IMG/VR virus record: IMGVR_UViG_2534681697_000027
Location: 1 to 31,309 of that record
Source of the DNA: a virus
Lineage: Duplodnaviria; Heunggongvirae; Uroviricota; Caudoviricetes
Length of the DNA: 31,309 nucleotides
Reading direction: 5' to 3' (one strand)
The notes under the pieces were generated by a model. It was not told where the DNA came from. It was given only the letters and a program-made list of their open reading frames with translations, and ran no database searches. The position numbers were made by a program, and so were the translations under genes. Each line of letters begins with the position of its first letter. Position 1 is the first letter of the stretch. Of the stretch, positions 24,593 to 25,416 are shown piece after piece.

Positions 24593-24754
24593 AACGACCT
24601 CGCGTTTCGATGGTTTTTAACTCACCACCTGCGACGCCAATCGCTGGGTGGTGAACTGTGCAGGGTTGGCGTAACCGGTCGAAACATCCGGCGAGTCTCT
24701 CAACTCCCCCACACAGCCCACCATAAATCGCGAATGTGACTGTGCTTAGCGCAT

Positions 24755-24775
24755 AAAAAAACCGCCAGCGCGGTT
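24755..24775 (-). terminator. Rho-independent terminator downstream of the late promoter (tR'-like)
   Basis: Minus-strand stem AACCGC/GCGGTT with 4-nt loop followed by T7. Confidence 0.6.
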
Positions 24776-24835
24776 ATGCACCGTTTCGATATCCGGGACG
24801 CCAATCCCGACGCCAGATTTTGCTGGCGCGTGAGG

Positions 24836-24865
24836 AATATAGCCCCGGATAACAGATTGAGTCAA
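24836..24865 (-). promoter_or_regulatory. Late promoter pR'-like
   Basis: Minus-strand TTGACT (24865-24860)-18 nt-TATATT (24841-24836); -35 overlaps the Q-like stop codon; recalled lambda pR' also has TTGACT at -35. Confidence 0.55.
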
Positions 24866-25416
24866 CAGACAGTTTTTAAATCCCCGGAAGAGAATGCATC
24901 ACGCATCGGCAGATAGAGCATAAACTCTGCCATTTTCAACCACGCATCTATGCGATTACGGCACGTGGCGTAACACCACTCAGGGTGTGAATCATTCAGC
25001 AATTCAGCCATTTTTCGCTTAGTCATCCCCCTCCCTTCATATCGTTGCCGGAGGATACAAATCAATCTTGGGTGTTCTGCCAGCACTTCACTAATCACCC
25101 GATCAATGCATAACGCCTCTGCATCAGTACAATGCACCAGCCAGCTTTTTTGCTTGCCGTTGATCATATCCCGCAAAAAAGCCTCAAGTTCAGGTTTGTC
25201 CAGACCTGCTTTTTTCATCCTCCGGAGCGCCTCGTTAATTGCCGTTTTTGTCAGCTTTTTAGAGGCCAACAACTGGTTGAACATATTCCCCGTCTTACCG
25301 CCGCCAATATACGACCAGCGCCCCCACATGCGCAGTTTTCCCTGAATCCAGACACTTTCCAGCGTGGTGAGACGAAGGTGTTCCCCGCTTTTGCCTGTAT
25401 TTATTGGGTAAATCAT
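24862..25416 (-). CDS. Putative late-gene antiterminator (Q-like), 184 aa
   Basis: Position between nin-region genes and the pR'/tR' pair; start overlaps YbcO-like stop (ATGA); no sequence-level match to lambda Q recalled. Confidence 0.45.
   Translation of the reverse strand: MIYPINTGKSGEHLRLTTLESVWIQGKLRMWGRWSYIGGGKTGNMFNQLLASKKLTKTAINEALRRMKKAGLDKPELEAFLRDMINGKQKSWLVHCTDAEALCIDRVISEVLAEHPRLICILRQRYEGRGMTKRKMAELLNDSHPEWCYATCRNRIDAWLKMAEFMLYLPMRDAFSSGDLKTVC

Follow-up and report, generated by a model that had tools for sequence, protein, structure and literature searches.

A c4-type antirepressor cassette probably lies between a DUF1133 Q-like gene and its late promoter in a Rac-like lambdoid prophage

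The viral record IMGVR_UViG_2534681697_000027 (Caudoviricetes; positions 1 to 31,309, here called the window, 31,309 nucleotides (nt) in all) is a Rac-like lambdoid prophage riddled with insertion sequences (IS). We analyzed its late-control region, which is read on the minus strand, as are all features described below unless a strand is given. The region consists of a Q-like antiterminator gene (25416->24862), a promoter at its stop codon followed by a gene for the small RNA (sRNA) IsrK, a c4-type antisense RNA, an antirepressor-like gene, and a second unit of promoter, short RNA and terminator (24027->23916). The second unit is probably where Q acts, and the segment between appears to be a separate, mobile control cassette. 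An earlier reading of the letters alone (the sequence-only reading) had placed the Q-dependent promoter directly at the Q stop.

The Q-like gene and its protein

The Q-like gene encodes 184 amino acids (aa) and follows a YbcO/DUF1364 gene (25413-25703; Pfam YbcO, 152.7 bits, and sequence). The TGA of the latter (25415-25413) shares the letters ATGA with the ATG of the Q-like gene (25416-25414), which bears out the translational coupling proposed in the sequence-only reading. An upstream ATG that would open a 224-aa open reading frame (ORF) was considered as the Q start and ruled out, because the Pfam model aligns from residue 1 of the 184-aa protein, whose ATG is the one coupled to the ybcO stop. 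That model is DUF1133 (PF06576), matched at 353.2 bits against a cut-off of 23.1, with residues 1-175 aligned to model positions 1-175 of 176.

Searches of antiterminator families, which the sequence-only reading had recommended, gave in addition a marginal match to PF06530 (Phage_antitermQ; 27.6 bits, cut-off 26), a match of 269 bits to PHROG 753 ("anti-termination protein Q-like") and matches to the Q protein of phage 21 (Q21) in the PDB. The DUF1133 gene is named Q in some phage records; no NCBIfam model matched either this protein or the ORF6N protein described below. When the 184-aa protein was compared with PDB sequences by phmmer, Q21 was the sole match (E=4e-4), covering the N-terminal, W-rich helix and the C-terminal helix. 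Profiles made solely from DUF1133 proteins detected Q21 (6P18/6JNX) with E-values of 9e-9 and 1.6e-9, in a colinear alignment that takes in both the N and the C terminus.

An AlphaFold2 (AF2) model built from a 37-sequence alignment has a predicted local distance difference test score (pLDDT) of 72.8, rising to about 90 for residues 100-170. In a Foldseek search of the PDB, its top 12 matches were all Q21 chains with probability 1.0 (template modelling score 0.46-0.57 by query length, 0.66-0.73 by target length), and the next match had E>2. The model shows the Q21 fold, a helical body with a helix-turn-helix (HTH) like that of sigma region 4. The predicted HTH lies at about residues 132-160, with YATCRNRIDAWL as its recognition helix. 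Opposite Q21 residues ~104-117, in the loop between the HTH helices that in Q21 touches both the minor groove of the DNA and the second protomer, the profile alignment has a gap of about 12 residues in DUF1133; the turn in the AF2 model is 5 residues (144-148) and is not a long loop of the Q21 type. Q21 contacts DNA through the segments SKH and ATCRR (PMC6606751), and at these positions DUF1133 has TKR and ATCRNR.

The family is small, with 70 representatives at 50% identity among 1.8 billion proteins. Those with a named source, among the matches listed, all come from Enterobacterales; of 35 DUF1133 genome loci, two (L013 and L020) have record titles outside that order. In intact relatives the gene lies between DUF1367-DUF1364 and the holin/lysozyme genes, that is, in the Q slot. 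One IMG/VR contig (L042) encodes a Q protein 100% identical to that of the window, and the start of its cassette and its downstream unit are identical in sequence as well. Taken by homology and predicted fold, the DUF1133 protein appears to be a distant branch of the phage 21 Q family. The suggestion that it might belong to a different antiterminator family, unlike lambda Q, was thus correct in that DUF1133 is distinct from lambda Q, but the protein falls in a divergent branch of Q21 and was already classed as Q-like in PHROGs.

The promoter and terminator at the Q stop belong to IsrK

Both signals reported next to the Q gene in the sequence-only reading are present. The promoter has -35 TTGACT (24865-24860), an 18-nt spacer and -10 TATATT (24841-24836), scores 10/12 in a promoter scan, and contains the Q stop TGA (24864-24862) within its -35 element. 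The intrinsic terminator is AACCGCGCTGGCGGTT (24775-24760) followed by seven T, a GC hairpin and T-run that together occupy 24755-24775. Consensus scans by themselves perform at chance level here: in 3 kb they give 3 promoter-like sites where 2.9 are expected, and 5 terminator-like sites where 3.2 are. The unit is nevertheless real, and far above chance, because the whole stretch is a full-length match to Rfam isrK (RF01394; 77.8 bits, cut-off 50, E=2.9e-15, model 1-77) that starts 7 nt downstream of the promoter. The predicted IsrK is 75 nt long and runs from G24829 to the T-run (24829->24755). A match to Rfam c4-a1b1 (RF03163; 52.9 bits, cut-off 46.7) overlaps it at 24842->24790.

IsrK is predicted to form two hairpins before its terminator. 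The first (24829-24810) is the inverted repeat CGCCAG (24828-24823)/CTGGCG (24816-24811). The repeat had been put forward as a Q-binding or pause element; it is there, but it is stem-loop 1 of IsrK and contains no identifiable Q site. The second hairpin (24809-24794) presents a b1 box, UUGGCGU (24804-24798), in its loop, and the linker that follows holds an a1 box, UCGAAAC (24789-24783). TTGAC and GGGGCTATATT are invariant across 15 cassette variants. The loop of hairpin 1, GCAAAAUC, is also invariant in all cassette variants, yet nothing in the c4-like RNA is complementary to it; it may serve to bind Hfq or to signal a pause. Nothing resembling a -10 element is found at +1 to +6 of the transcript (CGCGCC). 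At +8 to +13 an invariant CAAAAT agrees with the -10 consensus at 4 of 6 positions, including A2 and T6, a degree of match that is common by chance.

In the Salmonella prophage Gifsy-1, the homologous promoter drives lacZ at 280 versus 3 Miller units and yields both the short IsrK and, by partial read-through of the terminator, a translationally silent long RNA (PMC4825925). IsrK supplied in trans activates translation of the antirepressor gene anrP there; this trans-activation and Hfq binding have been shown for Gifsy-1 only (PMC4825925).

IsrK, a c4-type antisense RNA and the antirepressor leader carry matched sets of boxes

A c4-type antisense RNA (24728->24644; Rfam RF01695, 68.7 bits, cut-off 45) follows IsrK, at the position of STnc1160/'orf45' in Gifsy-1. 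Its predicted fold has an energy of -39.9 kcal/mol (z=-4.0), with an a' box, GUUUCGA (24685-24679), in a hairpin loop and a b' box, ACGCCAA (24672-24666), in a single-stranded stretch. The antirepressor leader (24593-24643) contains b2, UUGGCGU (24640-24634), and a2, UCGAAAC (24610-24604), directly 3' of which stands the Shine-Dalgarno sequence GAGG (24601-24598). Exact 7-nt complements of a' and b' therefore occur at both the upstream sites (a1/b1) and the leader sites (a2/b2). The gene behind this leader (24592->24035) encodes an ORF6N-domain, antirepressor-like protein homologous to AnrP (Pfam ORF6N, 71.9 bits; PHROG 2379 anti-repressor, 303 bits), and AnrP of Gifsy-1 has an ORF6N domain too. 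An ORF of about 36 codons spans the c4 region and stops 22 nt before the antirepressor ATG.

We aligned 15 distinct versions of the region from the promoter to the antirepressor start. The b1 box of IsrK hairpin 2, b' of c4 and b2 of the leader change together through six specificities (GGCGT, AGCAC, GGAAC, AGGAAC, GGTCT and TGCAC), and a1, a' and a2 co-vary likewise in at least four versions. Cognate b boxes are exact complements over 7-8 nt (mean 7.1), versus a mean of 4.1 nt for non-cognate pairs. RNAduplex energies of IsrK or leader with the c4 core were tried as a measure of specificity and rejected (average -28.8 kcal/mol for cognate versus -24.3 for non-cognate pairs); they are too noisy because GC-rich stems pair out of register, and tables of exact box complements were used instead. 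At least 10 combinations of a and b boxes were seen, reshuffled independently, with one a box accompanied by two different b boxes (window 24593-24829; L042-L064, L011, L003 and L122). These combinations look like a family of hetero-immune antirepressor controls, in the manner of P1 versus P7. Promoter, IsrK, c4 RNA, leader and ORF6N gene together are a c4-type control cassette of the immunity type.

The cassette occurs apart from DUF1133 Q genes

In Gifsy-1 the gene upstream of isrK (STM2617, AntQ) belongs to the Q82 family (PF06323, 396 bits), not to DUF1133. In the Shiga toxin 2 (Stx2) phage VT2-Sakai an isrK-C4-ant cassette is placed among the nin genes; a PF06530 Q lies 2.5 kb downstream of it, with a promoter and a terminator of its own directly behind the stop codon. 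One Salmonella prophage locus carries two copies of the cassette. Q proteins of different families use different DNA sites, so a single promoter is unlikely to be the cognate pR' in all of these contexts. By this distribution the cassette is autonomous with respect to Q.

Similar sequences flank the cassette in the window, TTTAAAAACTGTCTGTTGA on the left (24880-24862) and TTTAAAAAGTTCTTGCA on the right (24038-24022), and a cassette-free relative (L005) has the uninterrupted site CAAAAAACGGCTTGATT. The flanks may represent a target duplication or a recombination scar at the -35 element of pR'.

A conserved unit linked to Q lies downstream of the cassette

Starting from an alignment of five close sequences, we gathered related loci and analyzed 119 DUF1133 loci; their sources were 35 species genomes, 80 IMG/VR contigs and phage records. 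A common unit was found, consisting of TTG(nnn), 17 nt ending in TGn, TTNAAT, 5 nt, TANGCT and, after roughly 50-90 nt, a terminator of the AACCCGCC...GCGGGTTTT type that is conserved across loci. In 81 loci lacking IsrK, the TTNAAT-N5-TANGCT unit lies at -4 to +19 nt of the Q stop. It is kept down to 41% Q identity, and in one locus with a 38% identical Q the distance to the stop is 80 nt; genera that carry it include Klebsiella, Enterobacter, Citrobacter, Erwinia and Pantoea. Four more cassette-free loci have a variant missed by the pattern, including two Rac-type records (TATCTT-N5-TAAGAT). Where IsrK is found at the Q stop (28 loci), the unit lies 857-913 nt downstream, right after the ORF6N gene, in 25. 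In one of the other three the contig is too short to show the unit; the remaining two are L007 and L008. The unit is linked to Q in 106 loci.

The Rac-type Q genes (72% identical) are followed by TTGATT-17-TATCTT-5-TAAGAT and a terminator (phage Rac-SA53, L004, 5541-5650; L001). This divergent unit lies upstream of pertussis-like and type II heat-labile (LT-II) toxin genes.

In the window the candidate pR' (24027-23988) is about 830 bases downstream of the IsrK promoter. It comprises -35 TTGCAA (24027-24022), TG (24007-24006), -10 TTCAAT (24004-23999) and a -10-like TACGCT (23993-23988), with TTAGCCA (24019-24013) resembling a binding element for Q (QBE). The candidate tR' (23939-23916), CCCGC-UUUAU-GCGGG followed by seven U, ends a predicted RNA of about 76 nt. 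Folding of 23992->23914 (79 nt) gave -32.2 kcal/mol (z=-5.1), and none of 200 shuffles was as stable. The terminator scan had missed this hairpin, which folding later confirmed; our guess is that, through pairing between an A-tract and the T-tract, the T-run is taken up into the stem. For Q proteins to act, a promoter needs a further -10-like hexamer where transcription starts and a terminator beyond it (10.1101/651190; PMC6606751). The element 5 nt downstream of TTNAAT, often TGnTAnGCT, is the better extended -10 of the two (window 24004-23988 and 50 unique homologues).

The recognition helix and the promoter spacer co-vary

Residues of DUF1133 proteins aligned to helix H6 of Q21 were compared with promoter positions -29 to -19. 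Helices of the type TC-RRR go with a (G/A/T)TGAGC(A/C) spacer at 13 loci in several genera, TC-E(S/T/N)R with TTGCGCG at 11 of 12 loci (the exception is L017), TC-EKR with TTACG(C/T)A at 60, TC-CSR with TTGCACA at 10, and TC-RNR, the type of the window, with TTAGCCA at 15. The pR' spacer of the window reads TTTTAGCCATAAAC; TTTTGCACATAAAC and TTTTACGCATAAAC are contrasting spacers. Phage 21 itself pairs a helix motif of the TC-RRR type with the QBE hexamer TGAGCA (PMC6606751).

At the 25 cassette loci, helix and spacer are 860 bp apart yet match in 15 of 15 and 10 of 10 cases. The cassettes between them carry at least five c4 specificities in one helix group and at least four in the other, some common to both, and the IsrK promoter is identical in the two groups. 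This match across the cassette is the strongest computational argument that the Q site would be in the downstream unit rather than in the IsrK promoter. A second helix-dependent QBE repeat such as that of Q21 was not found in these promoters; at -17 to -12 there is only A(C/G)TGCT, which hardly varies and could equally well be the extended -10.

Comparison with known systems

The closest described relative is the antQ-isrK-orf45(STnc1160)-anrP-isrJ region of Gifsy-1 (Hershko-Shalev et al. 2016, PMC4825925), with the same order of Q, IsrK promoter at the Q stop, IsrK, c4-type RNA and ORF6N antirepressor. As in the window, a second short, terminated RNA follows the antirepressor and precedes tRNA and lysis genes, and the isrK scores are alike (79 bits in Gifsy-1, 78 in the window). 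However, AntQ is of the Q82 family (PF06323) whereas the window Q is DUF1133/Q21-like, the RNA after the cassette is IsrJ in Gifsy-1 and an unrelated unit in the window, the small ORF over c4 overlaps the antirepressor ATG in Gifsy-1 but ends 22 nt short of it here, and the a-box specificities differ. The unit after the cassette is not IsrJ itself, since Rfam isrJ has no match in the window, even at E<=1 over 23300-25500, and none in the Salmonella locus L011; an isrK-like match at the unit's terminator is weak (19.9 bits, E=0.2).

A parallel nonetheless emerges from the Q82 lineage. IsrJ of Gifsy-1 (RF01393, 100 bits) begins just after anrP, behind TTGCAA-17-TATATT, and contains TGaTATCGT, an extended -10-like element. 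It occupies 33520-33400 of the Gifsy-1 locus (L122, minus strand), and a homologous region is found at 1495-1620 of L123. In other phages, homologues of IsrJ and the 3' ends of genes annotated Q overlap; in Klebsiella phage ST11-VIM1phi8.1 the adjoining Q gene is PF06323 (285 bits) with no cassette between. By its anatomy and position, IsrJ looks like the pR'-tR' transcript of a Q82-type Q. The c4/IsrK cassette would then have landed at the Q/pR' junction in two unrelated Q lineages.

With phage 21 Q and pR'21 (PDB 6P18, 6JNX; PMC6606751; 10.1101/651190) the DUF1133 proteins have a fold and a distant homology in common. DUF1133 loci have a phage 21-like layout, in which a variable element sits in the -35/-10 spacer of the promoter, a -10-like element marks the transcript start and a terminator follows, and one DUF1133 clade carries the Q21 subsite TGAGC[AC]. 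The two differ in that the proteins are only about 20% identical, DUF1133 having ~12 fewer loop residues and ~30 extra residues (roughly 40-95), and in that the variable promoter element is centred about 2 bp further upstream than that of Q21, with no second helix-varying repeat seen.

In the immI region of phages P1 and P7 (c4, icd, ant) an antisense RNA is cut from the transcript of its own target, and its a' and b' boxes complement a1/b1 upstream and a2/b2 downstream. The window is similar in the complementarity of a'/b' to a1/b1 and to a2/b2 beside the ribosome-binding site, and in the multiple specificities. Unlike immI, it has a terminator after a1/b1, so that the boxes are also released as free IsrK, its antirepressor is an ORF6N protein, and the cassette lies inside a lambdoid late-control region. 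In phage lambda, the Q gene borders on a constitutive promoter, after which come a pause element like a -10 (+1 to +6), the short terminated 6S RNA and the late genes. This Q/pR'/6S/tR' logic fits the window unit at 24027-23916, but lambda Q (PF03589) is unrelated to DUF1133 Q in sequence and fold, and in the window Q and the probable pR' are separated by an 860-bp cassette.

A model for the locus and its alternatives

In the model we favor, to which we assign a probability of about 0.72, the cassette was inserted between the DUF1133 Q gene and its cognate pR'/tR' at 24027->23916. The constitutive sigma-70 promoter directly after the Q stop would produce the terminated 75-nt IsrK with its b1 and a1 boxes, and read-through of the IsrK terminator would produce a long RNA carrying c4 and the antirepressor. 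The c4-like RNA would pair with b2/a2 and block antirepressor translation, and free IsrK would offer b1/a1 as a decoy and relieve this block. Such a decoy fits the finding that IsrK in trans switches on anrP translation in Gifsy-1 and is compatible with the base pairs mapped genetically there. Q would act not at the IsrK promoter but at 24027->23916, with its -35, QBE-like spacer, extended -10, -10-like pause element, short RNA and strong terminator. Q-modified RNA polymerase would then read through the candidate tR' into the tRNAs and the lysis and structural genes.

Several points weigh against this model. We infer antitermination by DUF1133 Q, its choice of promoter and the decoy role of IsrK from homology, anatomy, distribution and co-variation, and the only protein tested at a locus of this kind, AntQ of Gifsy-1, comes from another Q family. 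Confidence in the AF2 model is no more than moderate overall, with residues 1-12, 39-50 and 87-94 poor. In cassette-free loci the promoter overlaps the 3' end of Q, and co-variation there could be plain linkage; only the 25 cassette loci break this linkage, with just two helix types among them. At -11 the presumed -10, TTNAAT, shows T and never A across the 50 unique promoters, and which hexamer of the Q-linked promoter is the -10 and which the pause element is uncertain. Finally, the IsrK promoter abuts the Q stop, and a sigma-dependent pause may occur at the CAAAAT of IsrK.

These last features belong to the view of the sequence-only reading, in which 24865-24836 is the Q-dependent pR', IsrK is the 6S-like transcript, the hairpin at 24828-24811 or CAAAAT is the Q or pause element, and read-through leads into the antirepressor and the late genes. 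This promoter does overlap the Q stop, like pR' in the cassette-free relatives, a strong terminator lies ~55-75 nt downstream of the start, no other 10/12 promoter match is found nearby, CAAAAT has the two key -10 positions, and some Gifsy-1 transcripts pass the IsrK terminator (PMC4825925). The short terminated transcription unit recognized at 24865-24755 is indeed there, but it is IsrK, the 5' end of the cassette, and is not specific to Q: the same unit follows a Q82-family Q and, in VT2-Sakai, stands in the nin region far from any Q. The promoter is also constant beside two DUF1133 recognition helices while the downstream unit varies with the helix, it is the other unit, with no IsrK, that stands at the Q stop in 81 of the 119 DUF1133 loci, and the IsrK boxes co-vary with the c4 RNA and not with Q. 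We therefore regard a Q-specific pR' at the Q stop as improbable. It is also unlikely, if a little less so, that Q acts at the downstream promoter while the cassette is wired into late control, Q-modified or early transcripts passing the IsrK terminator to give positive feedback on induction. The presence of the cassette at the exact Q/pR' junction in two unrelated Q lineages suggests selection for position, and in Gifsy-1 induction depends on IsrK and AnrP increases antQ transcription (PMC4825925). Yet in Stx phages a cassette placed in the nin region works too, the IsrK promoter has no recognizable Q site, and the junction could be a permissive recombination site, given the similar 17-19-nt sequences that flank the cassette.

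We consider it very improbable that the DUF1133 protein is no antiterminator, sharing with Q21 only an HTH fold like region 4 of extracytoplasmic function (ECF) sigma factors and being an ordinary DNA-binding regulator, or inactive in a decayed prophage. The family still has no function assigned in Pfam, its PF06530 match barely passes the cut-off (27.6 versus 26), about 12 residues of the Q21 HTH loop are missing from the family, and the prophage has IS elements and a frameshifted neighbor gene. Nevertheless, the homology to Q21 is colinear over both termini and includes the N-terminal W-rich helix, all significant structural matches are to Q21, the gene is always in the Q slot and is followed by a double -10 promoter and terminator of the kind Q requires, and the ORF is undamaged, with a 100% identical counterpart in another contig.

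Prophage context

Downstream of the candidate tR' is a tRNA cluster (Met-CAT, Arg-TCT, Thr-TGT and Gly-TCC; 23517-23827; ARAGORN and Rfam tRNA). An IS110-family element (21621-22817, plus strand; Pfam IS110 transposase) separates the tRNA cluster and pR' from a holin-sized ORF (21383-21168, identified by size), which is followed by lysozyme (21168-20671; Pfam Phage_lysozyme) and Rz (20686-20210; Pfam Phage_lysis) genes. The lysis genes are the expected late targets of Q. Beyond them are a TrkG-like gene and terminase and portal genes; the first, a TrkH/TrkG-family potassium transporter gene (18615-20090), sits in the late region as it does in Rac.

The IS110-family transposase ORF (398 aa) has two copies (11886-13082 and 21621-22817, both plus strand), as does a two-ORF IS5-like element (7730-8574, minus; 27082-27926, plus). 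The DUF1367 (IrsA/NinB-like) gene (25761-26279) matches model positions 1-153 of 198 only, with an early stop and the rest out of frame, and is probably a pseudogene. The second IS110 copy, the two IS5-like copies and the frameshifted DUF1367 gene point to decay of the prophage; the Q ORF is intact, as are the cassette and the downstream unit. A small ORF at 26813-26970, MKQQKAMLVALIVICLTVIV..., resembles Hok/Gef toxins by eye, and relatives L001, L002 and L004 have hok/sok at this position (Rfam sok). Rfam sok has no match in the window, where an IS5-like element adjoins the Hok-like ORF. An acyltransferase-3 family gene (28369-29472) beyond the early region may be O-antigen-modifying cargo.

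Implications

Each component of the locus is of a known kind: a Q21-like Q, an IsrK sRNA, a c4 antisense RNA and an ORF6N antirepressor. In the literature searched we found no statement of how a DUF1133-type late promoter is defined, of the helix/spacer pairs, or of the readings proposed for IsrK (c4 decoy) and IsrJ (pR' transcript). On balance we lean, at slightly better than even odds, toward a combined picture in which DUF1133 is a fourth, loop-less Q branch related to Q21, whose cognate late promoters are legible in genome sequences, about seven natural helix/spacer pairs form a specificity code for the Q21 fold, and a mobile cassette has been inserted repeatedly between Q and pR' in unrelated lineages. 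If this is true, the "island sRNAs" of Salmonella would be reread, with IsrK taken as a decoy released against a c4-type RNA and IsrJ as the pR' transcript, akin to 6S, of a Q82-type Q.

When phages are annotated, signals for initiation and termination beside a Q gene should not be taken as pR' and tR' by default. Through the comparison, the late promoter of the DUF1133 Q family can be defined in testable terms, and the natural helix/site pairs could be used to probe how proteins of the Q21 fold read DNA. DUF1133 Q genes are found in toxin prophages, including LT-II prophages and 13 Stx phage records, and the location of the true Q-dependent promoter therefore bears on toxin expression.

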